From Patescibacteria group bacterium (lineage in GTDB: Bacteria; Patescibacteriota; JAUYIX01; JBHPHK01), in assembly GCA_042569365.1 (NCBI GenBank), contig JBHPHK010000001.1:21082-85081 (forward strand): a stretch of 64,000 nucleotides of DNA. The letters are read 5' to 3'. A program made the position numbers and the translations under genes. Each line of letters opens with the position of its first letter. Positions within the stretch are counted from its first letter, which is position 1. Below, piece after piece: positions 3,013-61,760 of this stretch. The notes beneath the pieces were generated by a model, which saw only the letters and a list, made by a program, of their open reading frames with translations, did no database searches and was not told the origin of the DNA.

Positions 3013-6000
3013 ATGTCTACACCAGAAAAATCAACAGATTTTTTCAGCAGCAAAATTGCCGATTTTGACGCTATTCGTATTAAGGTTGCTTCTCCCGATG
3101 AGATCGAAGAATGGTCTTATGGAGAGGTTACCAAACCGGAAACTATCAACTATCGTACACAGCGCCCTGAAAAAGAAGGTCTTTTCAGTGAAGCAATCTT
3201 CGGTCCGACCAAGGACTGGGAGTGTTACTGCGGTAAATACAAGCGTATCCGTTATAAAGGTATTGTTTGTGAAAAATGTGGCGTAGAAGTCACCCGTTCC
3301 ATCGTCCGACGTGAGCGTATGGGGCATATCACTCTCGAAGTGCCTGTCAGCCATATCTGGTTTTTGCGCGGCGTTCCTTCTAAGATCGGTTTGATCCTGG
3401 ATCTGACCGTCCAGGAGCTGGAGAAAGTTATTTACTTTGCCAGCTATATCATTACGGACGTAAAAGAAGATGCGCGCGAGGAAGCCTTGAAACAGGTGAC
3501 CCGCGAAGCTAAGGCTAAGAAAGAGGAGATCTCCAAACGTTATCAGGAGATCAACAAGCGCTTGAAAGAGGAGCAAGCTAAAGCTTTTGAAGTTATTAAA
3601 GATAAGCCAGCGGGTGAACAGAAAAAATTAGCACAACGTTTTGAAGAAGAGCTCCAAAAGAAGAACAAAGAAAAGAAACAAGAGCTCGACAACTTGCAAG
3701 AGGCGGTCTCTACTGCCAAACAGGAGCTTGGAGACTTGAGTCCACTACGCGTTATCTCTGAAATAGAATACCGCGAACTTTCCGTCAAATACGGACATGT
3801 ATTCCAGGCCGGTATCGGCGCAGAAGCTGTGCGAGAACTGGTCAGCAAGATTGATCTCAAAGAAAATATCAAAACAATAAAAAGCGAGCTTAAGGGCGCC
3901 GTCGCATCTAAGCGTAAGAAGATGAAGCGCCGCCTAAAGTTAATCCAAAGCATGGACAAGGCGAATATTCGTCCAGAATGGATGTTTATCACGAAATTGC
4001 CTATCTTGCCGCCGGACCTTCGACCGATGGTCCAGCTTGATGGTGGCCGTTTTGCGGCCTCTGACCTGAACGACTTGTATCGTCGCGTCATCAACCGCAA
4101 CAACCGTCTTAAACGTTTACATAAACTTAATGCGCCAGAAGTTATCACGCGAAACGAAAAGCGTATGCTCCAAGAAGCTGTCGATGCTTTGATCGACAAC
4201 AATGCTCGCCGTGGCAAGGCTGTTGCTTCTACAACTGGCCAGCGACGCACCCTTAAATCTTTGGCTGATATGCTTAAAGGTAAACAGGGTCGTTTCCGCC
4301 AGAACTTGCTCGGTAAACGCGTCGACTATTCCGGTCGTTCCGTGATTGTGGTTGGTCCGCAGCTCAAACTACACGAGGCTGGTATTCCAAAGACGATGGC
4401 TCTCGAGCTTTTCAAACCATTCATCATCCAGCGTTTGATCAAGCATGAGTTTGCCTACAATGTCCGTTCAGCCGGTAAATTGATCGAAGCGAAAGCACCA
4501 GAGGTTTGGGACATGTTGGAAGAGGCGATTCAAGGTCAGTATGTTCTCTTGAACCGCGCTCCTACCCTTCACCGTCTTGGTATTCAGGCTTTCGAGCCAG
4601 TCTTGATCGAAGGAAAAGCGATCCAGATTCATCCGATGGTTTGTGATGCGTATAATGCTGACTTCGATGGTGACCAGATGGCGGTACACATTCCTTTGAC
4701 GGATAAGGCTCGTGAGGAAGCGCGAGAAATCATGCTTTCCAGCAAGAACTTGCTTAAACCTGCGACTGGTCAGCCAATCGTTACGGCTACAAAAGACATG
4801 GTCTTGGGTTGTTACTGGATGTCTGACATTAAGCCAGTACCAAAAGATAAGCGCCGCATTTTCTCTACAGAACAAGAGGTGATTCTTGCCTACGAAATGA
4901 ACAATCTAAATATTAAAGATGAAATCGAAGTTGTGCTTGATAATAAAGAGCGAATTACGACTTGTGCCGGACGCATCATCTTCAACAAGATTTTGCCGGA
5001 AGAATTTATGTTCATTAACGAGCTCTTGGATAAGAAAGTCTTGCGACGCATCGTTGCAGAGGTTTTGGATCTCTATGGCCGCGAGGTGACTGCTGAAGTA
5101 GCAGACCGCATTAAAGGTCTCGGCTTTGAATATTTGACTCGTTCTGGTCTTACCTGGGGTATGGATGACGTGAAAACTCCAAAGATCAAGGCGAAGCTTG
5201 TGGCGGATGCCGAAGATGAAGTTGAGCACATCCATGATCAATACCGCCAAGGTCTTTTGACAGATGACGAACGTTTTATGAAAGTTATTGAGATTTGGAG
5301 TAAGGTCAAGGATAATATCACCGAAGCTGTCGAAAAGGAACTGGACCGCGACGGGGGAGCATACAGTATGATCCAATCCGGAGCGCGTGGTAGCTGGGGC
5401 CAGTTGACTCAGATGATGGGTATGAAAGGTTTGGTGAGCAATCCGTCTGGTCGTACGATTGAGTTGCCGGTGAAAGATAACTTCAAGGAAGGCTTCAATG
5501 TGTTGGAGTACTTCATTTCTACGCACGGTACCCGAAAAGGTATGTCCGATACGGCGCTGCGTACTGCAAATGCCGGTTATCTGACACGTCGCCTTGTGGA
5601 CGTTGCACAGGATGTTGTTGTCCAGGAGGAAGATTGTCGTGATAACGTTGGTTTCACATTTACCAAGAAAGACAGTGAAGAAATTGGACGAGAATTTACG
5701 GATCGCGTTATTGGACGCGTGACTATCGGCAAGATTGTTGATCCGAAGACTGGTGAAGTCGTATTAAAACACAATGAGCTTATTACGAAAGAGTCAGCCG
5801 AAAAACTATCCAAGCTGGACTTGTCTGAAATTACAATCCGTTCCATCATGACTTGTCGCACGAAGCGAGGTGTCTGTAAGCGTTGTTATGGATATGACCT
5901 CGGTAATAATAAAGAGGTTGAGATAGGACAGGCGGTCGGTATTGTGGCTGCCCAGGCGATTGGTGAGCCGGGTACACAGTTGACTATGCGTACTTTCCAC

Positions 6001-10968: not shown

Positions 10969-13900
10969 ATGAATCTACAAAAATTTAAAATTCCCATCAT
11001 CGCAATTGGCGCAATAGCAGTCCTTGTTGTGGTGCATTTTGGTTATCCCGCTGTTCGGAATAGAACTGCCTCATTTATTCAAAGCATTTCTGTTCCCCTT
11101 AAGACAGCAGAAGAAACTCTTACAGCAAGTAGTGAATTTACTTACGGTTGGACCTATGCTAATGGTGGTGCAAGTACTGACGATGGCTATGATGTAGCTC
11201 TTGATTCTTTCGGTAATGCATATTTCACAGGATACTTTCAAGGTGCAGTCGATTTTGAACCTGGCCCCGGGATTGAAAACATATCAGCCTTAAATAGTGA
11301 CCCCTTCATCGTCAAGCTTGATTCAGATGGTGTCTACGACTCTGTTCAGGTTCTGAAAGGATCTGGTCATGATTTAGGTCAGAGTCTTGCTGTTGATTCT
11401 AGTGACAATCTCTTTGTGGCAGGATGGTTCACGAAAACAAATGACTTTGATCCAACAGCAGGTGTTGATAATCATAGTTCGGTGAGCAATACGAGAGATA
11501 TCTTCCTTACAAAATTAAACGCTGACGGCACCTACGGCTGGACCCGCACAATGGGCGACGTAGGCGACGAGCGATTAGAGCACGTAGATATTGATCCATC
11601 TGGCGCTGCCTATCTTACGGGGACCTTCTCCGCAACAATGGACTTCGATCCCACTGCCGGAGTCGACTCTCACGCCGTAGTCGGAAGTCAGGACAGTTTT
11701 CTCACAAAAATCAACGGGGACGGGTCCTACGGTTACACCTACACATGGGGAACAGACTTAATATACAGCGAAGCGCTCGCAACAGACTCACTTGGCAACG
11801 TTTACATCGGCGGATGCTGGCGTGGCACTATCGACTTTGATCCCGGTGTTGGAGTAGAAAGCCATAGCGCTGTCAATCCTCCTTGGGGTGTAGATATGTT
11901 TCTAGTGAAAATCAATGCCGACGAATCGTTTGGTTATATGTATCAGATTGGCGTTGACGGGTCTGAGTGCATTAGAGATCTCGCAGTAGATGGCTCTGAT
12001 AATGTTTACTATACAGGTAATGTCAATGGGTCGAACTACGACTTCGATCCCACCGCCGGAACGGACACTTATAGCACCGGAGGAAACGGCGATGGATTCG
12101 TAACGAAAATCAACGCTGACGGCACCTACGGCTGGACTTATATTCCTGAATCAACTGGTAGATTTACTGGAGAGGCTGTTGCGGTCGACGATGCTGGCAA
12201 CGCGAGTTTCACAGGACCTTTCAATGATGCGGTTGATTTTGACCCAGGCCCAGACGATGACACTTATACTCCAATAGGCTCTGCCGATATATTCGTGGTT
12301 AGCCTTAATGCCGATGGATCCTATATATCTACATACACTGCCGGAAACACAAATGCAGACATCGGACAGGGCTTAGTAATGGACAATGACGGTGGTATTT
12401 ATGTCACTGGGAGATTTCAAAAGACCGTGGACTTCGATCCAACGGACGGTATAGACGAACGAACTCCTCCTAGCGCTTACGAGAATTTCTTCTTAACAAA
12501 ATTTAAAGCTTCTGCTCCGCCACCACCTCCTCCGCCTCCACCACCTCCTCCGCCACCACCTGATCCGGACCCAGATCCAGATCCGGAACCTGAACCAGAT
12601 CCGGAACCTGAACCAGAGCCGGACCCTGAAGAGGAACCAGAATCCATAGGAGGAACGATCAGTACGGCGCTCGTTACTGCGCCACTCGTAACTGTCGGAA
12701 ACACAGTTATTTATCAAATTACCGTCACGGCACCTGAAGACGCACCTCTTGAGTCGCCAATTTCACTCCTGCTTGATTACAGCACGGAATATTTATCACT
12801 TACAGATGTTGATGCTGATGTAAATCCACTCAATCTTATAAATGATGGCTCTGTGAATTGGAGTGATGTCTCTGACGGCGCTGGTATCGATGCTAATGAC
12901 TCACTTACGTTTGAGGTAGAGTTCATAGCGCTGAAGGGCGGGGAGGCGCCGGATACAGACTTTGCAGCATTTCTTTCGACACTTGCAGAAAGCGGTGAAT
13001 CTGAAACTTATTCAGTCCAAAACAAAGAGCTCACTATTCTTCCGCATGTGTTGGGAGCACTGCCTATAGAACCTGAAAAAGCTAGCCAGCTTATTGCAGA
13101 CGAATCAGAAGTTGTTGGCCTGATTTCTCCTCCGGAACAACAAGTATTAAGCAATGTTGTTGCTCCAGTTATTGCTGCTCTCGCACTGGTTAATCTTATT
13201 GCCGCTATTGGTTCTCTCTCTTCACTTTGGTACTATCTTTTCTGGGCTTTCACTGAGCCGTTCCAACTCTTCTTCCATCGTCGCAATCGATCCTGGAGCA
13301 TCGTCTATGATGCGCTTTCAAGGCGTCCAATTCCTTTGGCGATGGTTCGAATACGTGATATTGAAACCGAGCGAGTCGTTAAAACTAAGGTTACTGACAA
13401 AGAAGGCCGCTTTATCCTGCAAGTGCCCCCGGGCAATTACCGGATCACTGTGAAAAAAGCTGGTTACGCTTTCCCATCCGCGCTAGTGACTGGAAAATCT
13501 GATGGTAAATTCTCTAACGTGTACCATGGCGGTACGCTGACAGTGCAGGGAGAACAAGAATACATGGTCATTAATATCCCACTTGATCCGCCAAGGCGCA
13601 TTGCCAATCCGATCGTCGCATTCCGTCGTAACAGCCGTGAGTTTATCAAAAAAGTGTTTGCTTACTCTGGAATTATAGTTGCCGTTATCCTTATGATTTC
13701 CGCTCCTTCTCTTCTAAATGCGCTACTTCTTGGTTTACATATTATCTTGTTCTTCATCTTCCGTTATCTCACCGGTCTTAATAAATCTCCAACCTGGGGG
13801 CGTGCCTACGACTTTGTTACTGGGCAGCCGCTTCGTAATGCAGTTGTCCGGATCTATGACAAGAAATACCAACGCTTACTTGATTCGCAAGTAACTGGCC

Positions 13901-14283: not shown

Positions 14284-16785
14284 ATGGGAAAGTCTTATTT
14301 TAATCTTTTTGCAGAAATTTTTATCGGCGCGGCTATATTCGTCGCGTTGCTTATTGTGTTTCCTGTTGCCCGTCAGCAGCTAATTTCGTTTGTTTCTTTT
14401 CGTTCCGTCTCTGCCGCGCCTAACCAACAAGCTGTGTCGGCGGTGTACGATCCGTACGCCTACACGTACACTGCGGGTGGTCCGGCGAGCGACGTTTCCA
14501 ATGCCGTTACCACAGACAGTAGCGGCAATGTGTACTACGGCGGATTCTTCCGGGATACCGTGGACTTCGATCCGACCAATGGCGTAGACAACCACACGTC
14601 TAGGGGCGGCTCCGATGTCTTCCTCACAAAGGTTAACGCAGACAGTTCCTACGCTTATACTCTCACTCTGGGTGGCACTGCAGACGACCGCGTAGATAGT
14701 ATCGCGGTTGACGCGGCGGGTAACATTTACCTCGCGGGCGCTTTCCAGGGCACTGCCGACCTTGACCCAACGGACGGCACGGACAGTCGCGTCTCCAACG
14801 GTGGCTACGATGCCTACCTAGTCAAGCTGAACGCGGACGGATCTTTCGCCTACGCGTATACATTCGGCGGCTCTGATCCGAACGACTACGCCAACGCCGT
14901 TACCACGAGCGACACCGATAAAGTCTACTTGGCAGGGTACTTCGGCGATAAGGTCGACTTCGACCCAACTGCCGGCGACGACAGCCGTACTTCCGGAGGT
15001 GGCGCGGACGCCTTCCTCGTCACGCTGAACGCGGATGGGTCCTACGACACCACCATTACCATCAGCGGAGCATCGAACGTCGGGGCGTACGACGTCGCCG
15101 TGGACGCGACTGGGGTGATGTACCTCGCTGGCATCTTCTACGGAACAGCAGACTTCGACCCGACCGCCGGCACCGACGAACGCACATCCAACGGCAGTGC
15201 CGACATCTTTCTCATCAAACTCAATGCGGACGGATCCTACGCCTACGCCTACACCGTGGGGAGCGCGGCGCAAGATTCCTCCACCGCCAGCGTGGCGGTG
15301 GATAGCACTGGAGCTGCCTACTTGGCAAGCTACTTCTGGGGCACCGTCGACTTCGACCCAACTGCCGACGACGACAGCTACACCGCCGGGTCATCTGGCC
15401 GGGACGGCTTCCTTACCAAGCTCAATGCGGACGGATCCTATAGCTCCACCGCCGTCTTCGCCGCCCACGCGGTGCAGTGCGAATTCGGGACTTGGGTCTA
15501 CCTAAAGGACGTGGCGGTGGCGCCGGATGACAGCATCTACCTCACGGGGAACTTTAGCTGCGGCACCGTCGACTTCGACCCAACGGACGGCCTCGATCTG
15601 CGCGTCTCCTCGGCATTCTTCCGCCTCTTCGTGACGAAACTCAAGGCAGACGGCTCCTACGGGTACACGTACAATTTCGAGGGCAATAATAATGACAACT
15701 ATGTCTACGAAGTGGCAGTGGACGTCGTTGGGAACGTCTACCTCGCCGGCGCCTTCGCTGGTACCACCGACTTCGATCCGCTCAGCACAACGGACAACCA
15801 CACTTCCAACGGGAGCTTCGACCTCTTCCTTACAAAGTTGGGTGAGCCTGCACCGCCACCATCCGAAACCGTCCAGATTTGTCACTCTGAAGGCGACGCG
15901 ACTGGCCCGTGGTCTTTCCTGGAAGTAAATGTCGGAAGCGAGCACGATGAACACACCTTCGATATTATCCCCATCACAGATTTAAATGACGATGGTCAGG
16001 TTAATATCGATGATTGCGGTTATGTGGCACCGTCTGTTCCACCATCTATTTACTTAAATCAGATGGTTCTCAAAGGATCTGGTTTAACACTTTATTATAT
16101 TGAGGGAGGCGAGAAGCGCGCCTTCTCTTCAAGCCGCGTTTTCAAAACTTGGTCAACATTCGCCAATGTAAGCGTGGTATCCGATGCTACGCTAACAGCC
16201 ATACCTAGTAGTACTATCATGAATTTCCGAGACGGAACTTTAATCAAGGGATCTGCCCCGGCAGTCTATGTTGTAGAAGACGGTGTTAAGCGTCCATTTA
16301 AGTCTAGCAGTGTCTTCCGGGCGCTCGGCTATACCTTTGAACGAGTTTTAACAGTTTCAGATCAAGAACTGGCTCTTCACTCTTCTGGCCCAGCTATCAC
16401 AAATTCCGCTACAATTCCTGATCAAACCTTAATTAAAGGAACAGGCACCACTGTCTATTATACTGACAATGGGAAAAAACATCCTTTCTCTTCAGGGAAT
16501 ATTTTTCGTACGTGGGGTACTACGCGTGATATCAATATCGTTTCTGACGCTTTTCTTGAGAGTATTCCCCGATACCCCGTCATGGGATTCCGCAGCGGAT
16601 CACTTGTTCGGGCGAAAGGCACACCGACTGTTTACTACATCGAAGATGGTCTGCGGCGCGCTTTCAGAAATCAGTGCACGTTTGACACGCTCGGATTTAA
16701 GACTAGTAATATTCTGATTGTCAGCAGTATTGATATTTTACGTAATTCTTCAGCTGCAGCGCTCGATATCTGTTCAGCTCTCTAG
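14284..16785 (+). CDS. Giant surface protein: TM anchor, about 9 SBBP-type beta-propeller repeats and 4 C-terminal tandem repeats of about 60 aa
   Basis: The repeat signature matches the upstream gene (GG..D.....A.D..GN.Y..G.F.GT.DFDPT.G.D......G..D.FL.KLNADGSY.Y.YT). The C-terminus has four copies of a module of the type LIKG.....VYY.EDG.KR.F.S..VF...G.......VSD. Confidence 0.8.
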   Translation: MGKSYFNLFAEIFIGAAIFVALLIVFPVARQQLISFVSFRSVSAAPNQQAVSAVYDPYAYTYTAGGPASDVSNAVTTDSSGNVYYGGFFRDTVDFDPTNGVDNHTSRGGSDVFLTKVNADSSYAYTLTLGGTADDRVDSIAVDAAGNIYLAGAFQGTADLDPTDGTDSRVSNGGYDAYLVKLNADGSFAYAYTFGGSDPNDYANAVTTSDTDKVYLAGYFGDKVDFDPTAGDDSRTSGGGADAFLVTLNADGSYDTTITISGASNVGAYDVAVDATGVMYLAGIFYGTADFDPTAGTDERTSNGSADIFLIKLNADGSYAYAYTVGSAAQDSSTASVAVDSTGAAYLASYFWGTVDFDPTADDDSYTAGSSGRDGFLTKLNADGSYSSTAVFAAHAVQCEFGTWVYLKDVAVAPDDSIYLTGNFSCGTVDFDPTDGLDLRVSSAFFRLFVTKLKADGSYGYTYNFEGNNNDNYVYEVAVDVVGNVYLAGAFAGTTDFDPLSTTDNHTSNGSFDLFLTKLGEPAPPPSETVQICHSEGDATGPWSFLEVNVGSEHDEHTFDIIPITDLNDDGQVNIDDCGYVAPSVPPSIYLNQMVLKGSGLTLYYIEGGEKRAFSSSRVFKTWSTFANVSVVSDATLTAIPSSTIMNFRDGTLIKGSAPAVYVVEDGVKRPFKSSSVFRALGYTFERVLTVSDQELALHSSGPAITNSATIPDQTLIKGTGTTVYYTDNGKKHPFSSGNIFRTWGTTRDINIVSDAFLESIPRYPVMGFRSGSLVRAKGTPTVYYIEDGLRRAFRNQCTFDTLGFKTSNILIVSSIDILRNSSAAALDICSAL

Positions 16786-53179: not shown

Positions 53180-53269
53180 GGAGAGGTGGCCGAGCGGTCG
53201 AAGGCGCACGCTTGGAAAGCGTGTAAACCCTCACGGGTTTCGCGGGTTCGAATCCCGCTCTCTCCGCCA
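53180..53269 (+). tRNA. tRNA-Ser (anticodon GGA), CCA encoded
   Basis: I folded this by hand. The acceptor stem is GGAGAGG/TCTCTCC and the D-arm is GCCGAGCGGTCGAAGGC. The anticodon stem CACGC/GCGTG carries loop TTGGAAA. A long variable arm, the T-arm GCGGGTTCGAATCCCGC and a terminal GCCA complete the fold. Confidence 0.93.
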
Positions 53270-53294: not shown

Positions 53295-53987
53295 ATGCAA
53301 ACGCCAGCTGAAAAATATCTAATAGATAAAGTTGTAGAGCTGTCCAAAGAAAAGGGCGGAGATTTTAGCAATCTGCAAATGCTCAATGTGGGCGCTGGCA
53401 AAAGTCTTGTCTTGGAGAAGGGCATACAGGCAGGATTAAATAGTACAGAGTTCACTTTCGATCGCATGGATGTGATTGACTGCCAGGTTGATCATCCAGG
53501 TGCGGGCGAGTGTTTTATTGCATCTGCAGAATCTATGCCGGCAATAGAGTCAGGCAAATATGAAGTTGCCTATGCTAATTATGTCTTAGAGCATGTCGAA
53601 AAACTAGATGCGGCTGCGTCAGAAATTGCCCGCGTTTTGAAGTCGGACGGATATTTCATAACATCTCTACCAAATCCAAGAGCGCCTGAATTCGTTTTAT
53701 CAAAATACACACCGACCAAGTTTCACCAAGCTATCAAAGGAGAAGGCGAGGGAAGTCATGCACACGAAACGCACTACGCCTATAAAAATATCAAAGAATT
53801 TGTCACAGTTTTCGAAAAGTACTTCACGACAGTCGAAGTGAAGCTCTGGTCGTTTACTTACGGCTACTTGCACAGATTCCCAGTCATTAAATACATCAGC
53901 AAGGCTTATGATGCCACGGTTAATTTCTTGCGTATCAAACCGTTGATGGGAAACGTTTGTCTAATTTTTAAAAAAACCTCAACTTAA
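53295..53987 (+). CDS. Class I SAM-dependent methyltransferase
   Basis: Motif I (MLNVGAGKS) and a Methyltransf_11-like core (YEVAYANYVLEHVEKLDAAASEIARVLKSDGYF) are present. Confidence 0.8.
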   Translation: MQTPAEKYLIDKVVELSKEKGGDFSNLQMLNVGAGKSLVLEKGIQAGLNSTEFTFDRMDVIDCQVDHPGAGECFIASAESMPAIESGKYEVAYANYVLEHVEKLDAAASEIARVLKSDGYFITSLPNPRAPEFVLSKYTPTKFHQAIKGEGEGSHAHETHYAYKNIKEFVTVFEKYFTTVEVKLWSFTYGYLHRFPVIKYISKAYDATVNFLRIKPLMGNVCLIFKKTST

Positions 53988-54007
53988 AGCATTAATAATT
54001 AAAAAAA

Positions 54008-54493
54008 ATGAACGACCAACCAATTAAACACACCGGCTGCTGCGATCCCTTTGATCCCAAGCCCTGGCAAGATCAAGAAATAAATTGGCAAGACAAGATC
54101 TTCGTCAAAGACAGTGTGAAGAGTGTCATGCATATGCCAGTCAATATGGGCAAGGTGATCATCAAAAATATGGAGCTAATCGAAAAGGCGGACGCAAAAG
54201 CGCCATACCAACTCATGCTCACAGACGAGAAATCAGCCTGGGGCTCAGATATTTATATCGATGTCGCAAAAGACGTGCCAGGTGCACAGATGACGACTTT
54301 ATCAGGAACATTTCTTACCAAGGTTTTTGAAGGACCGTATAAAAACGCTGGAGAGTGGGCCAAAGAAATGAAGGAATACGTTGAAGACAAAGGCAAGCAA
54401 ATAAAGAAGCTTTATTTCTCATATACTACCTGCCCGGCTTGCGCTAAAGCATACGGAAAAAACTACGTAGTCTTATTCGCACAAATAGATTAA
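54008..54493 (+). CDS. Conserved hypothetical protein with Cys pairs at both ends
   Basis: The product is 161 aa, with an N-terminal GCCDPFDPKPW and a C-terminal TTCPACAKAYGKNY. I recall a similar family, but its function is unknown to me. Confidence 0.55.
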   Translation: MNDQPIKHTGCCDPFDPKPWQDQEINWQDKIFVKDSVKSVMHMPVNMGKVIIKNMELIEKADAKAPYQLMLTDEKSAWGSDIYIDVAKDVPGAQMTTLSGTFLTKVFEGPYKNAGEWAKEMKEYVEDKGKQIKKLYFSYTTCPACAKAYGKNYVVLFAQID

Positions 54494-54497
54494 ACGG

Positions 54498-54881
54498 ATG
54501 AGTAGCGAAAAAAGTAAACCTAAAAACCACATAGTCTCAATTGATTTTGATGGCGTCCTGTCTCAGTACAAAGGCTGGCAAGGTGATGAAATTATCGATG
54601 AGCCTATTGAAGGCGCAAAGGAATTTCTCCAGAAACTAATTGACTCTGGTTATACGCCGGTTGTTTTTACCGTACGCGACGCTCTGTATGTCCAAGAGTG
54701 GCTGAAAAAGTTTGATTTCCCTGAACTAGAAGTGACCAACCAGAAAATTCCTTCATTAGTCTATATTGATGACCGCTGCATCAAATTTGAAGGCGATTAT
54801 GAAAAGCTAACGCAAGATCTCAAAAACTTTGAGATTTACTGGAAAGAAGAAGGCAGTAAATTATTCAAAAATTTAAAATAA
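54498..54881 (+). CDS. Small HAD-superfamily phosphatase-like protein
   Basis: The HAD motif I is IVSIDFDGVL (DxDG[VT]). A late acidic motif, YIDDR, is present. The product is 127 aa and capless. Confidence 0.5.
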   Translation: MSSEKSKPKNHIVSIDFDGVLSQYKGWQGDEIIDEPIEGAKEFLQKLIDSGYTPVVFTVRDALYVQEWLKKFDFPELEVTNQKIPSLVYIDDRCIKFEGDYEKLTQDLKNFEIYWKEEGSKLFKNLK

Positions 54882-54882
54882 T

Positions 54883-55353
54883 ATGACAAATATAGAAATA
54901 ATCGAGCACAAAAACCACAAATTCATGTTCATAGATGATTATCTTTGGATGTGGGACTTGCCACACGAACAAGAGTTGCAGCAGGATGTTGCTGATCAAG
55001 CTTATGGAGACGTCTTGGTGGCAGGCTATGGGTTTGGAATAGTGACTAAATTAGCCCTTGATAATCCCCAGGTTAAATCAGTAACAACAGTCGAAAAATA
55101 TCCAGAGGTGATCGATAAGATGAAAGAATTCGGCCCTATTCACGGAGAAATTATTATTTCGGATTTCTTTGATATCCCCGAAGACAAAAAATACGACTGT
55201 GTGATCGGAGACATATGGGCCGAGATCGATTCAAAATACTTTGAGGAGTATAAAAGATATAAGGCAAAATCCCAAAGACTTCTCAAAAAAGATGGCCAAA
55301 TATTGGCCTGGGGCAAGGATTATTTCGAGTATTTATTAGAAAAGAATGGATAA
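54883..55353 (+). CDS. Rossmann-fold methyltransferase-like protein
   Basis: A Gly-rich loop (VLVAGYGFGIVT), an acidic residue at the end of beta-2 (VTTVEKY) and VIGDIW are present. The product is 156 aa. Confidence 0.45.
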   Translation: MTNIEIIEHKNHKFMFIDDYLWMWDLPHEQELQQDVADQAYGDVLVAGYGFGIVTKLALDNPQVKSVTTVEKYPEVIDKMKEFGPIHGEIIISDFFDIPEDKKYDCVIGDIWAEIDSKYFEEYKRYKAKSQRLLKKDGQILAWGKDYFEYLLEKNG

Positions 55354-55996
55354 AACTTTAAGAGATAAATTAATTGTTCTAACCAGAAAAAGACTTCAAG
55401 AAAATGATCCCTCTCACGATATTGGTCATGTGCTAAGGGTGCTTGCAATAGCGGAAAAAATTGCACTTCGAGAAAAAGCTGATCTAGATATTGTAGTTCC
55501 TGCTGCTATTTTTCATGACATCATTTGTTATCCAAAAAATCATAAGAAAAGACTTGATAGTTCGAAAGAAAGCGCCGCTTATGCCAAAAAAGTACTGAGA
55601 CAATTAAAAGAGTATCGACAAAGAAAAATAAAAAAAACTTGTGAAGCAATAGAATGCTGTTCTTTTTCTAAGAACCAAAAACCCGCAACGTTAGAGGCAA
55701 AAGTATTACATGACGCTGATAGTCTAGAGGCAGTGGGAGCAATTGCTATCATGAGAACTTTTTCTTCTTCTGGAAATATGAATAGACCTTTTTACAATGA
55801 AGCAGATCCATTTTGTGAAAACAGGAGTCCAGATGATAGTAAATATGCAGTGGATCTTTTCTATACCAGGCTCTTAGTTATCAAAGATAGATTATACACG
55901 CTAACAGCGAAAAATATGGTAAAACAACGACATCAATTTTTAAAAGACTTTTTAGTAGAGCTAAAATATGAATTAGCTGAAAATCAAAATGAATAA
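55346..55996 (+). CDS. HD-domain metal-dependent phosphohydrolase
   Basis: The His...His-Asp...Asp pattern appears as HDIGHVLRV, AAIFHDI and LHDADSLEA. The start overlaps the upstream stop by 8 nt (ATGGATAA). Confidence 0.8.
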   Translation: MDKTLRDKLIVLTRKRLQENDPSHDIGHVLRVLAIAEKIALREKADLDIVVPAAIFHDIICYPKNHKKRLDSSKESAAYAKKVLRQLKEYRQRKIKKTCEAIECCSFSKNQKPATLEAKVLHDADSLEAVGAIAIMRTFSSSGNMNRPFYNEADPFCENRSPDDSKYAVDLFYTRLLVIKDRLYTLTAKNMVKQRHQFLKDFLVELKYELAENQNE

Positions 55997-56762
55997 TGAT
56001 AAAGAAAGAATTATTGAGCATGAAAACGCTAGATGGAGCAAGATTTTTCAAGATGAGCTACAAAAGAATACTAAGAAAGACTTTTCTTCATATTGGTGGG
56101 AGAATTATTATATTGACCTAACTGGATATGTCAATAAGAAGATGCTTGAAAATGGATATACAACAATTTTGGAGGCTGGCAGCGGGTCTGGCAAGACAAC
56201 AATTTTAACAGATAATAGATTTCATAAAACTTTGTTAGACATTTCTCCTACAGCTTTACGCTATGCAAAATATTTAGCTAACAAATTTGATAAAAAAGAT
56301 GTTATATTTGTAGGTGGAGATATGTTTCATATGCCATTTAATGATAATGAATTTAATTTAGTATGGAATATCGGGACAGTCGAACATTATGAGGCGAATG
56401 ATATAGAACTTGCTATTCGGGAAATGATTAGAGTATGCACTAAAGACGGAATTGTAGCAGTCGGAATACCAAATCGATTTTCAGGTCCAATACTAAAAGC
56501 CTGGTTATTAAAAAAGATAAAACTCATCCCCGGATATAAATTGGACACAGAATACTTTTACAGTGCCACTGAAATTCAAAAAATATTTGACAGAGCTATC
56601 AGTATTTCAAATAAAAAAGTTGAATATATAGAAGTAAAATATTTCGGTAATCCATTAATTATAGAAACTCCAAAAATAATACTAAAGACAATAGGAAGAT
56701 TAGTTGAACACATTTTCCCCAAAAGTAAGTTTTTAATTTTGGTAGCCTGTAAATTAAAATAA
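55989..56762 (+). CDS. Class I SAM-dependent methyltransferase
   Basis: Motif I is ILEAGSGSGKTT, followed by LLDISP and VGGDMFHMPF. The start overlaps the upstream stop by 8 nt (ATGAATAA). Confidence 0.8.
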   Translation: MNNDKERIIEHENARWSKIFQDELQKNTKKDFSSYWWENYYIDLTGYVNKKMLENGYTTILEAGSGSGKTTILTDNRFHKTLLDISPTALRYAKYLANKFDKKDVIFVGGDMFHMPFNDNEFNLVWNIGTVEHYEANDIELAIREMIRVCTKDGIVAVGIPNRFSGPILKAWLLKKIKLIPGYKLDTEYFYSATEIQKIFDRAISISNKKVEYIEVKYFGNPLIIETPKIILKTIGRLVEHIFPKSKFLILVACKLK

Positions 56763-56763
56763 T

Positions 56764-57900
56764 ATGTCAGAAATACAAAATCCAAATTTTGAAAAAGACG
56801 TACAAGACTTAGAAAAAGAGTCGAAAAAGAATATTTATGGAAATGAAAAACTTCTTCCAGAAGAAGCGCGTGAGCGAGTTGATAGTTTAATTAAGGGGTT
56901 TAAGGAATATTATATTGACAAGGGTTATGTCGAAGAGCCGTCAGTAAAAATAAGCTCTGGATACGACCCAACCGTGCGATTTATCGGATCTCATATTAGT
57001 GTATTCAAGCCTTATCTTAATGAAAGAAAGGTCCCAGACCCAGGCTTATGTATGCACCAAGATTGTCTCAGGACACATAATGTAGATCGATTATTGGACG
57101 ATGAATATCAGTCTCAGTGGGGCTCATATTTTCCGAGTATCGGCACATTAGCTTCTCCGGAGAGACTGAACGAAGCAGTTGGTGAGGTTTTTGAATTATT
57201 AGAAGAACAGATAAAAATATCATCAGAAAACATATTAGTTCGCATTAGTTCTGCGGATTCAGATTTGTTAGAGGCATGTAGACAGAACTGTTCAGAAGAT
57301 AGTTTAGAAATCGATAGCAGGGCACCTTATTATTACAGGCATGAAATAGGGATTAAAGAAATACAAGGCAGAAGTTTTAATATTGCCCTAAAAGATCCTG
57401 AAGGAGATGATTATTCTGATATAGGCAATATTATTCTTCTGGAAAGTAATAAGGAGACGCTTGGTATAGAAACAGCATTAGGGGTGACTACAATTTTAAA
57501 ACAGCTACATGGATTAGATCATGTTCAGGACTGCAATCCTGTAAGTGAGTTAAATGGCGTAGAAAACGAGATTATTAGGAGGAAGTTTGAGGATGCAATA
57601 ATAACAGGAACAGTGCTTTATGGTGAGGGTCTTCGCCCATTTGGACAACACAATCGTAACAGAATTCTTAAGAAATATATGAGAGCCTTAAGTTATTTTC
57701 GCGCCAGGTCAGGATTAGATGTTGAAAATATTAGACAAGGCATCAAGGGTTTTGAGGATAGAGAACATTTAGGTAAAACAGGTGGTGTCGCGGAGGCTAT
57801 GGTAGAATATATTAAGGCTTACGAGAGAGATCTCTTAATAAATAAAGTTTTAACAAAAGATGAAAATAAAATCAGAGAAGCACTACAACAATTAACCTAA
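56764..57900 (+). CDS. Stand-alone, divergent alanyl-tRNA-synthetase-like catalytic domain (class IIc aaRS paralog)
   Basis: The 378-aa product is collinear with the AlaRS aminoacylation domain. Matches are DPTVRFIGSHIS (cf DPTLLFTNAGM), HQDCLR (cf SQRCVR), GNIILLE (cf WNIVFMQ), IETALGVTTILKQL (cf VDTGMGLERIAAVL) and GLRPFGQHNRNRILKKYMRAL (cf [20 protein letters not shown]). No tRNA-recognition, editing or C-Ala domains are present. Confidence 0.7.
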   Translation: MSEIQNPNFEKDVQDLEKESKKNIYGNEKLLPEEARERVDSLIKGFKEYYIDKGYVEEPSVKISSGYDPTVRFIGSHISVFKPYLNERKVPDPGLCMHQDCLRTHNVDRLLDDEYQSQWGSYFPSIGTLASPERLNEAVGEVFELLEEQIKISSENILVRISSADSDLLEACRQNCSEDSLEIDSRAPYYYRHEIGIKEIQGRSFNIALKDPEGDDYSDIGNIILLESNKETLGIETALGVTTILKQLHGLDHVQDCNPVSELNGVENEIIRRKFEDAIITGTVLYGEGLRPFGQHNRNRILKKYMRALSYFRARSGLDVENIRQGIKGFEDREHLGKTGGVAEAMVEYIKAYERDLLINKVLTKDENKIREALQQLT

Positions 57901-57901
57901 A

Positions 57902-58906
57902 TTGAGTATGTTGGAAATTAAAAATCTTATTAAGCCCAAAAAAATTAAAAAAGGCGCCCATTTGAGAATTATTGCTCCTTCAAGAAGCATCAAGATACTT
58001 TCTGATGAAAGTAGGCAAGAGGCAACTAAAAAATTGGAAGATCATGGATTCAGGATATCCTTCGGAGAACATGTAGAAGAGAATGATGAATTTAATTCAT
58101 CTGCGGTAAGGTCAAGAGTTGAAGACTTGCATAATGCATTTTCTGATCCAGACGTTGATGCAATTTTAACAGTAATAGGAGGATATAATTCAAATCAATT
58201 GTTGCAATATTTAGATTACGATCTTATTGCTCAGAATCCAAAAATAGTTTGTGGATTTTCTGATGTGACAGCATTTGCCAACGCGATTACAGCAAAAACA
58301 GGAATGATTACTTACGTCGGCCCCCATTATTCTAGCTGGGCAATGAAGTATGGCTTTGATTATTCCCAGCAGTATTTCGAAAAATGTTGCATGAAGAACA
58401 ATGCTTATGATCTGTTTTCATCTAAGGAATGGAGTGATGATCCTTGGTACATTGACCAAGAAAAGAGGGACTTTATCAAAAATGAAGGATATTGGATTAT
58501 GAATGCAGGTCATGCACTTGGACGTGTTGTAGGAGGTCATGTGCGGTGCTTAAATTCTTTGCAAGGAACTGAGTTTTGGCCACTACTAGATGACTCGATC
58601 TTACTTCTTGAGGAGGATGCTGAAATTAATCCGCCGCTTTTTGATCGTCAATTACAATCATTAATCCAGCAACCAGATTTTAAGGGAGTTCAAGGAATAT
58701 TAATAGGTCGATTTCAAAAGGCAACAGGAATGACTCGAGAATTATTGAGTAAGATTATTGAGACAAAAAAGGAATTACAGGAAATACCAATTGTTGCAAA
58801 TGTCGATATTGGACATACTACACCAATTGCCACATTCCCAATCGGGGGAAGCATGGAAGTATCTGCGACAACTCAAAATGCAGAGATAAGAATAATTGAA
58901 CATTAA
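57902..58906 (+). CDS. Peptidase S66 family serine hydrolase (MccF / LD-carboxypeptidase family)
   Basis: The nucleophile elbow is VCGFSDVTAF, the acid is LLLEEDAE and the His is VDIGHTTP. The N-terminus is LRIIAPSRS. Length is 334 aa from TTG 57902 (ATG alternative at 57908). An aromatic-rich insertion (PHYSSWAMKYGFDYSQQYFEKCC) follows the nucleophile. Confidence 0.85.
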   Translation: MSMLEIKNLIKPKKIKKGAHLRIIAPSRSIKILSDESRQEATKKLEDHGFRISFGEHVEENDEFNSSAVRSRVEDLHNAFSDPDVDAILTVIGGYNSNQLLQYLDYDLIAQNPKIVCGFSDVTAFANAITAKTGMITYVGPHYSSWAMKYGFDYSQQYFEKCCMKNNAYDLFSSKEWSDDPWYIDQEKRDFIKNEGYWIMNAGHALGRVVGGHVRCLNSLQGTEFWPLLDDSILLLEEDAEINPPLFDRQLQSLIQQPDFKGVQGILIGRFQKATGMTRELLSKIIETKKELQEIPIVANVDIGHTTPIATFPIGGSMEVSATTQNAEIRIIEH

Positions 58907-58909
58907 GAC

Positions 58910-60025
58910 ATGATTCCAGCGCATTTAAGAAATAGAATTAAACATGATGATTTGTTATTCAAGAAAAGTAATGAATCATTATTTGACTTAGCAAAATATA
59001 ATCCCGCTGAATATTATAAAGAGTTGACCAGAAGTGATTATTATCGAGCGCTTGTAACATTGCGACATTATATTAAGTTATTTTCTGACTATTATTTTAG
59101 TTTTGTGGTTGGCGCAAAAAACATTGATCTATTTATGTTGACGCCCAGCATATCGTCTCCTATGGGACCTGGGTCAGATTCAAAACCTATACCTATTAAG
59201 TTTGGAAAATTTAAATATTTGGTTGATTCTTCTCAGTTTGGATTTGAGCCTTTGCTTCTGAATGACATTAATAAGGTGTATTGCTATCTTCCTTCAATGC
59301 GTGGCGAAGATCCAGACGAAAGGCATATTAATCAATTTTTTCATTGTGAAACGGAAATAGTTGGCAATGTAGAAGAAGTTATGGTAATAGCTGAAGAATA
59401 TGTGAAATACTTGTCGCATGCACTTGTTATGATGCCAAATATATCAAGGGGGATCAGTCTTAATTATAAGAAGAGCTTAAATTGTTTAAAAAACATTATG
59501 AAGACTGAAAAGTTTCCGAGAATCACTTTTAATGAAGCCGTGGAAGTTCTTGAGAAAAATGGCTATAAAAACATGATTAAGTATACCTCGACTAGTCGGG
59601 ATATTACCTCTGTAGGGGAATATAAACTGACAGAGATATTAGAAATTAATACTCCTCTCTGGATAACTAATTATGATAGAGATCGCGTTCCTTTCTACCA
59701 AAAACCAGATCCGGACAATCTAGATAAGACATTGAGCGCAGATCTGGTTTTCCCGCCACTTACAAAAGATTCTATAGGAGGAGAAGTTATTGGTTGTGGA
59801 CAGAGACAAAACAATGTCAAGGAAATGAGAGAGTCTTTACGAAGGCAAAAAATCAATTCTAAGCCATATGAGTGGTATATAGAGCTTAGAAAGCATCCAG
59901 AATATCAGACAACTTCTGGCTTCGGACTAGGTATAGAAAGATTTATTGCCTGGGGATTATGTCGCCATGATATTAAAGATGTGACACTATATCCCAGATT
60001 AAAAAATATGAGGTCATATCCCTAA
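58910..60025 (+). CDS. AsnRS/AspRS-like class IIb catalytic core without an anticodon-binding domain (AsnA-like ligase paralog)
   Basis: Motif 2 is SMRGEDPDERHINQFFHCETEI (cf FRAE...RHLAEFWMLEPE). DLVFPPL...GGEVIGCGQRQ is present. Motif 3 is SGFGLGIERFIAWGL...DVTLYPR. The product is 371 aa and has no N-terminal OB fold. Confidence 0.8.
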   Translation: MIPAHLRNRIKHDDLLFKKSNESLFDLAKYNPAEYYKELTRSDYYRALVTLRHYIKLFSDYYFSFVVGAKNIDLFMLTPSISSPMGPGSDSKPIPIKFGKFKYLVDSSQFGFEPLLLNDINKVYCYLPSMRGEDPDERHINQFFHCETEIVGNVEEVMVIAEEYVKYLSHALVMMPNISRGISLNYKKSLNCLKNIMKTEKFPRITFNEAVEVLEKNGYKNMIKYTSTSRDITSVGEYKLTEILEINTPLWITNYDRDRVPFYQKPDPDNLDKTLSADLVFPPLTKDSIGGEVIGCGQRQNNVKEMRESLRRQKINSKPYEWYIELRKHPEYQTTSGFGLGIERFIAWGLCRHDIKDVTLYPRLKNMRSYP

Positions 60026-60082
60026 AAGTTTAGGGAGATATAATAGTTTTAGTTATTGAATGTCATCATATATAATGAGTAC

Positions 60083-60955
60083 ATGTCCGTAATCGAAGTC
60101 CAAAACCTCAAGAAATACTTCGGCAAAAACAAAGCCGTCAACGACATTTCCTTTAATATCGAAAAAGGAGAGATTTTTGGTTTCTTGGGTCCCAACGGAG
60201 CGGGAAAAACAACTACAATCCGCTGCATGATGGACTTCATTAGAGCAACAGACGGACATATCAAGATTCTTGGTAAAGATGCGCATAAGGAGACAGATAA
60301 ATTGATGCGCAGTATTGGTTATCTTTCCGGGATTGTTCATCTGTACGACAAGTGGACCGGACAGACACACTTTAACTACATGCAGAAATTAAACGGCGAC
60401 AAAAACATCGCCAAAGAACTTTCTGATCGATTAGAGTTTGATCCAACGGTTCGCACTAAGAAGCTCTCATCTGGCAATAGACAGAAACTTGGAATTATCT
60501 TGTCACTGATGCATCAGCCGGAAGTCTTGATTTACGATGAGCCGACGAATGCTCTTGACCCACTTCTCCAAAATGAAGTCTATAAACTTCTTGAAGAAGC
60601 ACAAGGTCGCGGAGCAACCATCTTTATGTCCTCACACAACTTACATGAGGTCGAGCGTGTTTGTAGCCGAGTGGGCATTATCAAAAAAGGAAGAATGGTA
60701 GCAACTGAAAGCATTGAGAGTCTGCGCGAAAAGCGTCTCTACGAAGTGAGAGTGTTTTTCAAAAATAAAGTCATCCAGGATCAAGTTATTGCACCTGGCA
60801 TCGAGATCGTTAAAGAGCTAGACCAGGGCTTTGTCATGACAGTCAAAGGTGATGTGAATATTCTTCTGGATAGACTTGAGCCACTCGATATAGACGACCT
60901 TGAAATTTCCTACGGAAGCCTTGAGGATATATTCTTGGAATACTATCAGCACTAA
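60083..60955 (+). CDS. ABC transporter ATP-binding protein (ABC-2 exporter type)
   Basis: I prefer the start at ATG 60083 (MSVIEVQNLKKYFG). Walker A is GPNGAGKTT, the signature is LSSGNRQK and Walker B is LIYDEPTNALD. Confidence 0.9.
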   Translation: MSVIEVQNLKKYFGKNKAVNDISFNIEKGEIFGFLGPNGAGKTTTIRCMMDFIRATDGHIKILGKDAHKETDKLMRSIGYLSGIVHLYDKWTGQTHFNYMQKLNGDKNIAKELSDRLEFDPTVRTKKLSSGNRQKLGIILSLMHQPEVLIYDEPTNALDPLLQNEVYKLLEEAQGRGATIFMSSHNLHEVERVCSRVGIIKKGRMVATESIESLREKRLYEVRVFFKNKVIQDQVIAPGIEIVKELDQGFVMTVKGDVNILLDRLEPLDIDDLEISYGSLEDIFLEYYQH

Positions 60956-60956
60956 T

Positions 60957-61760
60957 ATGTTCACAATTTTCTGGCGCACAATTAAAGATCGCAAAACCTC
61001 CCTTATCGTATATTGTCTGGGAGCGGTATTGGTCGTTTGGATGTTTATTGCGATGTTCCCAACCATTCAGGAACAGTCCGAAAACTTCGCGAAGCTCGCT
61101 GAAAGTTATCCGGAGGGTTTCATGGCCGCTTTTGGAATCGAGCAAATGAGCTTTGATACGATTGAAAGTTTCCTCTCGCTCGAGCACTACAGCATCCTCT
61201 TCCCGATTATGATCATTTTCTTACTGCTTGGTCTAGCGGGAGCAGCGATAGCCAGAGAAGTCGAGAAGGGAACCATAGAAAATCTTCTCTCCAAACCAAT
61301 CTCACGCACAAAAGTTTTCTTCGGAAAATATCTGGCCGGCATATTCGCACTTGTACTCTTCATAATCTTTGGAGTATTCTCAACAGCTCTCCTGTGTGAG
61401 ATCTCCGGCATTGAATATGTTCTCAAAGCACATGCGCTTGTAGGCGCCCTGAGCTTTTTCTTCGGATGGGCGGTCTTGAGTATCTCTTTTATGTTCTCTA
61501 CTATCTTTTCAGAACGAAACAAGACACACATGGCTTCAGGAATGATTCTCCTTGGAATGTATCTTGCTAATGTGGCAGCATCTTTACTAGATAAGATTTC
61601 TGATCTAAAATATATATCCCTGTTCTATTACTTTGATTACAACACTGCATTGCTCGATTCACAATTAGAGCTTTTGCCAATCATTGTCCTTGGAGGGGTT
61701 GCGATCATATGTACCGCTATCGGAGTAGTCTGGTTTAATAAACGCGATATCGCAGTTTAA
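60957..61760 (+). CDS. ABC-2 family transporter permease
   Basis: I prefer the start at ATG 60957, 1 nt after the ATPase stop (MFTIFWRTIKDRK). There are six predicted TM segments. Confidence 0.75.
   Translation: MFTIFWRTIKDRKTSLIVYCLGAVLVVWMFIAMFPTIQEQSENFAKLAESYPEGFMAAFGIEQMSFDTIESFLSLEHYSILFPIMIIFLLLGLAGAAIAREVEKGTIENLLSKPISRTKVFFGKYLAGIFALVLFIIFGVFSTALLCEISGIEYVLKAHALVGALSFFFGWAVLSISFMFSTIFSERNKTHMASGMILLGMYLANVAASLLDKISDLKYISLFYYFDYNTALLDSQLELLPIIVLGGVAIICTAIGVVWFNKRDIAV

Follow-up and report, generated by a model that had tools for sequence, protein, structure and literature searches.

A horizontally mobile gene cassette of Patescibacteria joins two truncated class II aminoacyl-tRNA synthetase paralogues to an MccF-type peptidase and may direct the synthesis of an N-aminoacylated small molecule

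A 64,000-nucleotide stretch of the metagenome-assembled genome of a Patescibacteria group bacterium (GenBank assembly GCA_042569365.1, contig JBHPHK010000001.1, positions 21,082 to 85,081 of the forward strand; hereafter the window) carries five open reading frames (ORFs) in one packed run on the plus strand. In order, they encode an HD-domain phosphohydrolase (HD), a methyltransferase (MT) dependent on S-adenosylmethionine (SAM), a truncated protein resembling alanyl-tRNA synthetase (AlaRS) that we call AlaL, a serine peptidase of family S66, and a catalytic core resembling asparaginyl-tRNA synthetase (AsnRS) that we call AsnL (Table 1). We tentatively read this cassette, at somewhat short of an even chance, as a compact operon that makes a small molecule, N-aminoacylated and methylated, and keeps it in check by hydrolysis. 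Most probably the product would be an antimetabolite, whether a mimic of an aminoacyl-adenylate or a toxic derivative of an amino acid.

More than 60 loci, mostly in Patescibacteria, carry the cassette. A scan anchored on AlaL, with one genome per species, yielded 33 loci; other loci were added and duplicates removed to give 33 non-redundant loci, which were analysed by tblastn and ORF clustering. At the AlaL-anchored loci the S66 gene adjoins AlaL in 32 of 33 cases, and AsnL, MT and HD are found in 24, 23 and 11 of them, respectively. An independent, S66-anchored scan of metagenomes gave 80 loci, and partners were counted at those with both flanks readable. Where the S66 protein is at least 60% identical to the window copy, AlaL is present in 15/16 loci, AsnL in 14/16, MT in 13/16 and HD in 9/16, whereas S66 genes in the 50-59% identity range are mostly orphans (AlaL in 4/16, AsnL in 1/16). 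The AlaRS-like/S66/AsnRS-like triad, whose conservation the original prediction had proposed to check, is thus co-localized in dozens of genomes. S66 is an obligatory member and the hub of the cassette variants, and is also the best-conserved protein (60-76% identity across cassette loci, compared with 41-63% for the other members; MT copies are 41-61% identical to the window copy).

Patescibacterial hosts comprise Saccharibacteria, Parcubacteria, Moranbacteria, Zambryskibacteria, Colwellbacteria, Staskawiczbacteria and Gracilibacteria. Beyond this phylum, the cassette is found on a Calothrix plasmid (AP018229) and in metagenome-assembled genomes of alpha- and gammaproteobacteria. The GC content of the cassette is below that of its own flanks in most loci, and tRNA genes of differing identities lie directly upstream of it in three (L009, L015, L016). 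Given this low GC content relative to the flanks, the spread over several classes and phyla and a plasmid, and the upstream tRNA genes, the cassette is a horizontally mobile operon.

Its foreign character is equally apparent in the window. The cassette has a GC content of 0.347, compared with a window mean of 0.445 (standard deviation 0.033, in 4.68-kb windows), and is the 4.68-kb stretch with the lowest GC content of the whole 64 kb. GC content at third codon positions (GC3) is 0.20-0.30 across the five cassette genes and 0.39-0.49 in the genes on either side. Because GC3 is low in those five genes and higher in both sets of flanking genes, the compositionally foreign unit is exactly the five genes, with four small upstream genes and a downstream ABC transporter lying outside it. 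The tight spacings first reported for the run (-8 nt to the preceding 156-amino-acid (aa) ORF, then -8, +1, +1 and +3 nt) proved exact, as did all six hand-counted GC values of 60-nt lines (0.28, 0.33, 0.30, 0.42, 0.50 and 0.47). Recurrence of the triad together with low GC and GC3 supports the original contention that the five genes form a functional unit foreign to their host.

Domains were called by profile searches with curated cut-offs, using Pfam on 10 ORFs between positions 53295 and 60955 together with NCBIfam. The expected HD, Methyltransf_11/25, Peptidase_S66 and tRNA-synt_2 domains were confirmed, and tRNA-synt_2c remained below its cut-off.

Judged from its sequence, AsnL is probably a tRNA-independent ligase that forms the adenylate of asparagine or aspartate. 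The protein has no anticodon-binding (OB) domain, and its residues 1-42 form short helices according to Pfam and an AlphaFold2 (AF2) model. The mean predicted local distance difference test (pLDDT) score of this model is 90.6, and its top 19 Foldseek matches are all AsnRS. In an alignment with E. coli AsnRS and AspRS (alignment A4), AsnL keeps the class IIb residues R131, E133, F143 and E149 of motif 2, R299 for side-chain binding and R344 of motif 3, along with the acidic residues D278 and E292, which we take to be metal ligands as in class II enzymes. Since every invariant class IIb residue is retained, the adenylation site is intact. E113 is the Glu typical of AsnRS, where AspRS has Lys or Gln, and AsnL is closer to true AsnRS (1x54, E = 3e-31) than to the archaeal enzyme (1nnh, E = 3.5e-6). 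Strong conservation is evident from a mean column identity of 72%. All catalytic motifs of AsnRS are present, yet AsnL departs from canonical AsnRS in lacking the OB-fold domain and in scoring 151 bits against the asnS model, whose cut-off is 343.

An AsnRS-derived core without an anticodon domain is also found in AsnA, in the archaeal AsnRS-like asparagine synthetase and in SlgZ, an AsnRS-like protein that acts together with the methyltransferase SlgM in streptolydigin biosynthesis (PMC5357945). By the published description of SlgZ, that pair parallels AsnL and MT in joining such a core to a SAM methyltransferase, and MT stays beside the AsnL gene even in rearranged cassettes (L022, L023, L024, L039). 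Unlike SlgZ/SlgM, the cassette has no polyketide or nonribosomal peptide synthetase context, and unlike AsnA, AsnL scores far below the NCBIfam cut-off for asparagine synthetase A.

AlaL scores 20.8 bits against the Pfam tRNA-synt_2c model (cut-off 30.3), and its kinship with AlaRS is confirmed by structure and profile comparison. The best Foldseek matches of its AF2 model (pLDDT 89.6) are catalytic fragments of AlaRS (E = 1e-14 to 1e-12), which align over the whole length of AlaL (approximately 360-418 aligned columns) with template modelling scores of 0.60-0.70, or 0.66-0.70 for bacterial fragments. These fragments comprise both the aminoacylation domain and the tRNA-recognition domain. In a comparison by hhalign with residues 1-461 of E. 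coli AlaRS (alignment covering 7-315), residues R103, N222, E236, A238 and T243 of AlaL correspond to R69, N212, D235, G237 and R242. AlaL therefore has Thr in place of the motif-3 Arg; the RHH and E residues of motif 2 are likewise replaced, and the motif-2 Phe is kept. The retained residues are presumably class II contacts to the adenylate, and we take the lost Arg to be the one that holds the gamma-phosphate of ATP. D235 is, we assume, the Asp that binds the alanyl amino group; Glu occupies this position in more than 90% of the AlaL superfamily, which numbers 607 representatives at 50% clustering. A conserved AlaL segment, RRKFEDAII...GLRP...NRNRILK, aligns with RVIADHIR...GVMPSNENRGYVLR, where the tRNA-recognition domain of AlaRS begins.

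These features alter the picture drawn by the original prediction, which held that neither synthetase-like protein can recognize tRNA. For AlaL this fails, as its model spans the tRNA-recognition domain of AlaRS and the signature helix-loop is kept, and the premise that AlaL is an adenylating enzyme unable to see tRNA is probably wrong. The companion claim of two adenylating enzymes holds for AsnL, with all of its motif-2 and motif-3 residues, but is doubtful for AlaL, in which the motif-3 Arg and some motif-2 residues have been lost, as described for the tRNA-dependent transferase AcmF (PMC12945691).

By analogy, AlaL is instead a probable aminoacyl-tRNA-dependent transferase. AcmF, a truncated AlaRS-like protein with a D232E substitution and no adenylation activity, moves alanine from Ala-tRNA to the sulfamate nitrogen of an adenosine analogue in ascamycin biosynthesis; the cluster-encoded AlaRS AcmD makes Ala-tRNA for AcmF, and the hydrolase AcmE reverses the AcmF step (PMC12945691). 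Compared by its published description, AcmF of Streptomyces sp. 80H647 is like AlaL in consisting of aminoacylation and tRNA-recognition domains alone, in carrying the Asp-to-Glu change at the amino-group-binding position, and in being paired with a hydrolase that, in the cassette too, would be able to remove the aminoacyl group (PMC12945691). The two systems differ in that the cassette has no genes of the sulfamoyl-adenosine pathway, has an AsnRS-like core and a methyltransferase as obligatory partners, and resides mainly in Patescibacteria. Their hydrolases also differ, AcmE being an alpha/beta-hydrolase with a signal peptide and the cassette enzyme an S66 serine peptidase.

The S66 protein matches the Pfam models Peptidase_S66 and S66C with 120 and 95 bits. 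Because its homologues are 332 aa long, its true start is probably the ATG at 57908 rather than the TTG as called, which would change the gap to AlaL from +1 to +7 nt. Its closest structures are 4h1h and 4e5s (Lmo1638/BA_5613; E about 1e-110), followed by MccF of B. anthracis (1e-43) and of E. coli (1e-35). The MccF matches are full length, whereas PA5198, the LD-carboxypeptidase homologue of P. aeruginosa, matches in the N-terminal domain only (1e-18), and the score against the NCBIfam LdcA equivalog is 94 bits (cut-off 378). The original assignment to the MccF type rather than LdcA is upheld by these stronger, full-length matches and by the LdcA score far below its cut-off. An alignment shows the catalytic residues to be present, namely the GFSD serine, the GHT histidine and an acidic LEED stretch; the residue aligned with the serine is Ala (GFAD) in PDB entry 4inj. 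A Trp of B. anthracis MccF falls opposite a conserved WSDD(P)W loop in this alignment, and in E. coli MccF the adenine-stacking Trp is W186. The structures of Lmo1638 and BA_5613 have been solved, and no functional data for them were found in the literature searched.

Immunity functions are established for MccF and for the HIT protein MccH, and MccF homologues that stand alone are frequent (PMC8323819). Cassette S66 shares with MccF the two-domain serine peptidase build, the Ser, His and acidic residues, full-length similarity and the occurrence of both cluster-linked and orphan copies (PMC8323819). It differs in belonging to the Lmo1638/BA_5613 subfamily (about 55% identity, by eye) rather than to MccF proper, and in forming the cassette's obligatory hub rather than an optional addition. 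A classical microcin C cluster was considered and rejected: none of the 10 ORFs scanned between 53295 and 60955 encodes an MccB/ThiF-like enzyme, and the cassette has no room for an additional ORF that could specify an MccA precursor peptide. On this point the original prediction had reached the same view.

The curated-model scores also bear on a far simpler account, in which housekeeping genes adjoin by chance, AsnL being an asparagine synthetase, S66 a murein LD-carboxypeptidase and AlaL half of a split AlaRS. JGI labels S66 homologues LdcA, and the best NCBIfam match of AsnL is indeed 'asparagine synthetase A' (NF005055), but at 153 bits against a cut-off of 389; the S66 protein falls as far short for LdcA (94 against 378) and AlaL for AlaRS (18-20 against 457-529 bits, at best 20 against 529). 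AlaL furthermore lacks the motif-3 Arg and ends at 378 aa, and no C-terminal AlaRS half adjoins it in the loci analysed. Both the split AlaRS and ordinary AsnA or LdcA genes were rejected on these scores, the lost Arg and the foreign composition. With the linkage also strictly conserved across phyla, the chance-neighbour account is largely refuted and retains hardly any credence.

The HD protein is an accessory member of the YedJ/YpgQ type, with 168 bits against NCBIfam PRK10119 (cut-off 286) and E. coli YedJ as its best PDB match (3gw7, E = 1e-39). YpgQ is a nucleotide pyrophosphohydrolase. Three loci without HD (L003, L020, L021) have a HAD phosphatase in its position in front of MT, and because this enzyme takes the place of HD, its presence suggests that a phosphohydrolase step is needed.

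From the gene content, conservation, mobility, folds and catalytic residues computed or observed here, we infer the chemical steps, the substrates and the role of S66 as follows. AsnL would form Asn- or Asp-adenylate with ATP and pass the acyl group to a nucleophile other than tRNA, as AsnA, the archaeal asparagine synthetase and SlgZ might lead one to expect. MT would tailor the AsnL product, for which SlgZ/SlgM offers a precedent, and HD, or the HAD phosphatase elsewhere, would strip phosphate or pyrophosphate from a nucleotide-type intermediate. AlaL would activate no amino acid itself, and might in the manner of AcmF transfer alanine, or possibly glycine, from charged tRNA to an acceptor amine held in the old adenylate pocket. 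S66, as an MccF-type serine amidase, could then cut the aminoacyl-N bond, either to protect the producer or as a processing step.

Relatives of the cassette place these families in telling company. On the Exiguobacterium sp. Helios plasmid NZ_CP053558.1 (about 70.6-87.8 kb; L040/L042), distant versions of the four core families lie in one cluster: an AlaL-like protein (24% identity, 53.7 bits for tRNA-synt_2c), MT, an AsnA-like protein (35% identical to AsnL) and S66 (22%). Further members of this cluster are CDP-sugar genes and genes for a glycosyltransferase, a deoxynucleoside kinase, a Pol-beta nucleotidyltransferase, two ATP-grasp ligases, an AlaRS of 595 aa, a kinase of the APH type and a major facilitator superfamily (MFS) pump. 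Overall it has the look of a biosynthetic cluster for a nucleoside- or peptide-type product that includes resistance genes, and its full-length AlaRS beside an AlaRS-like protein recalls the AcmD/AcmF arrangement. In five loci of alphaproteobacterial type, AlaL and S66 accompany genes for a P-loop protein and a HIT protein, AsnL and MT are missing, and 4/5 also have a radical-SAM gene. In three further loci (L048, L070, L073) the order is HD-MT-S66-AsnL, with AlaL absent from L048 and on the opposite strand in the other two; L048 has two S66 genes, an extra GlyRS and two GNATs, whose best NCBIfam matches are antimetabolite-resistance acetyltransferases, below cut-off. The theme of an aminoacyl-nucleotide or antimetabolite, already put forward in the original prediction, fits these neighbours, among them extra aminoacyl-tRNA synthetase (aaRS) genes, HIT, GNATs, a kinase and an MFS pump.

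Several other variants were noted. At L046, a HisZ/HisRS-like protein of 384 aa stands in AlaL's place beside AsnL (4751-5905 on the minus strand; 3138-4725), together with a divergent S66 (31% identical to the window copy), a CofC-like nucleotidyltransferase, a glycosyltransferase-like protein and a short AspRS. An insert of 233-243 aa between AlaL and S66 in L010 and L020 has no family match. Elsewhere in its superfamily AlaL is fused to other domains, as GNAT-AlaL, response-regulator receiver (REC)-AlaL, AlaL-methyltransferase and AlaL-HD (P0398, P0434, P0410, P0485). Recurrent AlaL-S66 fusion was rejected on the basis of a single in-frame case among 125 loci, a 692-aa ORF with no stop between the two parts (L025, 5245-7323), which may be a genuine fusion or may result from an error in sequencing. 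In L049 and L050 the cassette has decayed, leaving parts of MT and AlaL beside an intact S66 gene (for example L050, 5805-8469); L050 has no AsnL downstream, and the flank of L049 is too short to judge. This decay pattern suggests that S66 is useful on its own.

Such usefulness is what one would expect if the cassette were no producer but an island that confers immunity to exogenous antimetabolites of the aminoacyl-nucleotide or amino-acid kind, or detoxifies them. S66 would then cleave the compound, HD or HIT would attack its phosphate link, MT and AlaL would methylate or N-aminoacylate it, and AsnL would serve as a decoy or bypass. The standing of S66 as hub and most conserved protein, its retention in L049 and L050 while the remaining cassette decays, the two S66 genes, two GNATs and extra GlyRS stacked in L048 without AlaL, and the existence of GNAT-AlaL fusions all suit this account, as do the widespread orphan S66 genes of the same subfamily, which parallel MccF-type resistance genes (PMC8323819). 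A decoy, however, needs no adenylation site, and that of AsnL is complete and strongly conserved (72% mean column identity). The same four families also occur within the obviously biosynthetic Exiguobacterium cluster, and four or five enzymes against one class of toxin would be extravagant for a genome of approximately 1 Mb. We consider an island of this kind unlikely, though a contender worth keeping in view.

Full-length aaRS genes are frequent neighbours of the cassette. GlyRS adjoins it in L010 (on both sides), L023, L024, L048, L070, L073, L075 and L126, and further neighbours are AspRS (L005, L046), ValRS (L005) and HisRS (L047). The GC3 of linked GlyRS genes is 0.41-0.59 in 5/7 loci measured, compared with 0.16-0.39 for the cassette; the other two values, 0.25 in L075 and 0.33 in L126, are not far from those of the cassette. 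The two GlyRS copies of L010 (1872-3272 and 8870-10273) are 66% identical, one being host-like and the other foreign in composition. By analogy, the linked genes resemble the self-resistance or substrate-supply copies of aaRS-inhibitor clusters. As with albomycin SerRS and other self-resistance copies (PMC8323819), relatives of the cassette have a full-length foreign aaRS beside it (GlyRS, or AlaRS in Exiguobacterium); they differ from those clusters in that the identity of the enzyme varies (GlyRS, AspRS, ValRS, HisRS, AlaRS), and the window has no such gene. Just upstream of the cassette in L001 (3761-6111) lie genes for a 385-aa PheRS-alpha-like protein with an FDX-ACB domain and an MvdD-type ATP-grasp ligase, along with a 53-aa ORF, which may together be a peptide cluster of the graspetide type that has an aaRS-like gene of its own. 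L002, a variant of the L001 locus, has a defence-type OLD-family TOPRIM/AAA nuclease directly after the cassette (11393-13267, minus strand).

The frequency of full-length aaRS neighbours is also in keeping with modification of a macromolecule, in which the aaRS-like proteins would aminoacylate a protein, a tRNA, or a peptidoglycan or teichoic precursor, with MT and HD tailoring and S66 trimming the product. Truncated class II aaRS paralogues are known to act on macromolecules, EpmA on elongation factor P (EF-P) and GluQRS on tRNA, and these precedents lend general support, as do the tRNA-recognition-like domain retained by AlaL and the murein LD-carboxypeptidases among S66 enzymes. A role in core cell biology nevertheless sits poorly with the patchy distribution, driven by horizontal gene transfer and including plasmids. 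The cassette S66 is far from LdcA, and the nucleotide-handling partners (HIT, the CofC-like NTP-transferase, the deoxynucleoside kinase) point to small molecules, so that we give macromolecule modification low credence.

A toxin or anti-phage module is a further possibility, and one that we consider quite improbable. Such a module might deplete ATP, amino acids or charged tRNA, for instance through a futile cycle of adenylate formation and hydrolysis, or produce an intracellular poison of translation upon infection. PADLOC returned generic methyltransferase and ABC-ATPase matches and none for HD, AlaL, S66 or AsnL, and no AlaL homologue was present in 50,697 phage records. The REC-AlaL fusion suggests an activity under signal control, and a mobile low-GC island would be a suitable setting, but the sensor/effector architecture typical of defence is missing, and the OLD-family nuclease of L002 makes that locus the one with a defence neighbour.

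Our preferred reading, a biosynthetic operon whose product is held in check by hydrolysis, has several observations weighing against it. No genes that would build an acceptor, such as a sulfamate or phosphoramidate, are recognizable in the five-gene version, and Patescibacteria have tiny genomes and are, to our knowledge, not known as antibiotic producers. Because AlaL ends before the residue equivalent to E. coli AlaRS D400, which helps to read the G3:U70 base pair, its binding of tRNA must be regarded as putative. AlaL also keeps N212, where AcmF has Gln (PMC12945691), and no orthology to the cassette copies is detectable in the MT and HD domains to which AlaL is fused elsewhere. Recombination at housekeeping genes, rather than self-resistance, could account for the linkage to GlyRS. 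Finally, it is odd for a pure immunity gene that S66 should be the best-conserved protein, the hub and, apparently, once fused to AlaL. These properties would fit a biosynthetic or entirely different role, for example that of a transacylase acting on aminoacyl-AMP or aminoacyl-tRNA.

A bolder form of the biosynthetic reading, which we regard as a long shot, takes up this last point. The cassette would be a ribosome-independent machine for making amide bonds, fed with aminoacyl-AMP by AsnL and with aminoacyl-tRNA through AlaL, with a HisZ-like protein in the place of AlaL in L046, and S66 would be, beyond a hydrolase, the shared acyl-enzyme transacylase or the obligatory last-step processor. 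The product, an aaRS inhibitor that mimics an aminoacyl-adenylate and is directed at hosts or competitors, would be the first natural product from Patescibacteria, with the recurrent foreign GlyRS conferring self-resistance.

In the literature searched, we found no description of the cassette, of the AlaL family of these bacteria (the candidate phyla radiation, CPR), or of AlaRS- and AsnRS-like proteins in Patescibacteria. By comparison with known systems, the cassette would be an aaRS-paralogue antimetabolite pathway with a dedicated amidase and is not categorically new in kind, since its component types have precedents in AcmF, SlgZ/SlgM and MccF. Truncated aaRS paralogues such as AcmF, SbzA and SlgZ are an emerging source of unusual amide-forming chemistry, and MccF-type peptidases are a known counter-measure to aminoacyl-adenylate mimics; this 4.7-kb cassette unites both themes. 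It is widespread among ultra-small, uncultivated Patescibacteria, for which no natural product chemistry was found in the literature searched, and the large AlaL superfamily (607 clusters at 50% identity) appears unstudied. If the product is indeed an aaRS inhibitor or other antimetabolite, the cassette would offer a directly clonable route to a new class of compound, a molecular handle on how episymbionts interact with hosts or rivals, and a function for the structurally solved Lmo1638/BA_5613 peptidases of Listeria and Bacillus anthracis.

Table 1. Positions of the cassette genes and of neighbouring features in the window.
Feature	Position	Strand	Size	Description
HD-domain phosphohydrolase (HD)	55346-55996	+	216 aa	YedJ/YpgQ type; Pfam HD 54 bits; accessory member
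Class I SAM-dependent methyltransferase (MT)	55989-56762	+	257 aa	Pfam Methyltransf_11/25/31, 51-57 bits
AlaL	56764-57900	+	378 aa	Truncated AlaRS-like; aminoacylation-type domain and helical tRNA-recognition-type region
S66 serine peptidase	57902-58906	+	332-334 aa	MccF-like, Lmo1638/BA_5613 subfamily; TTG start as called
AsnL	58910-60025	+	371 aa	AsnRS-like catalytic core; tRNA-synt_2 105 bits, aa 91-364
3' hairpin	60021-60036	+	6 bp	CCCTAAaagtTTAGGG; perfect; spans the stop codon of AsnL, at the 3' boundary of the low-GC block
Upstream ORF	54883-55353	+	156 aa	Weakly methyltransferase-like; 8-nt overlap with the HD gene; local context
tRNA-Ser(GGA)	53180-53269	+		ARAGORN and Rfam; 2 kb upstream of the cassette
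ABC transporter ATPase and permease	60056-61760	+		ABC_tran 89 bits; GC3 0.47, host-like

The exporter downstream of AsnL had been counted as part of the system in the original prediction. We rejected it as a cassette member on its host-like GC3 and its lack of conservation: an ABC transporter adjoins the cassette in 0/33 other loci, where the few ABC-like matches are weak (25-32% identity) and kilobases away.

Between tRNA-Ser(GGA) and the cassette (53295-55353) are four tightly packed small genes of host-like composition that are not conserved with it. They encode a methyltransferase, a PF20603 'Bact_hydrolase' (219 bits), a weakly HAD-like 127-aa ORF and the weakly methyltransferase-like 156-aa ORF. 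The last of these matches Pfam Methyltransf_11 with 19 bits, below the cut-off, has a host-like GC3 of 0.43 and is without a counterpart among the 33 loci. The tRNA-Ser gene is a possible landmark of island insertion; a search for att-type direct repeats of its 3' end found none. Farther away in the window, an 833-aa ORF (14284-16785, plus strand) has no Pfam match at E up to 1e-5.

The hairpin described in the original prediction is present, spanning the AsnL stop codon. It lacks a T-run and is absent from the sites listed by the terminator scan; we give it little weight and consider its significance doubtful. That scan gave 10 terminator-like sites compared with 5.4 expected (standard deviation 2.9), none of them at the end of the cassette, and promoter-like sites occur at background level. 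Control by a dedicated tRNA or by a riboswitch or T-box was rejected, as an Rfam scan returned tRNAs and one tmRNA and no riboswitch or T-box, and the identities of upstream tRNAs vary by locus. The AlaL ORF of the window is 100% identical to the NCBI protein ACFL1U_00335 ('Patescibacteria group bacterium').

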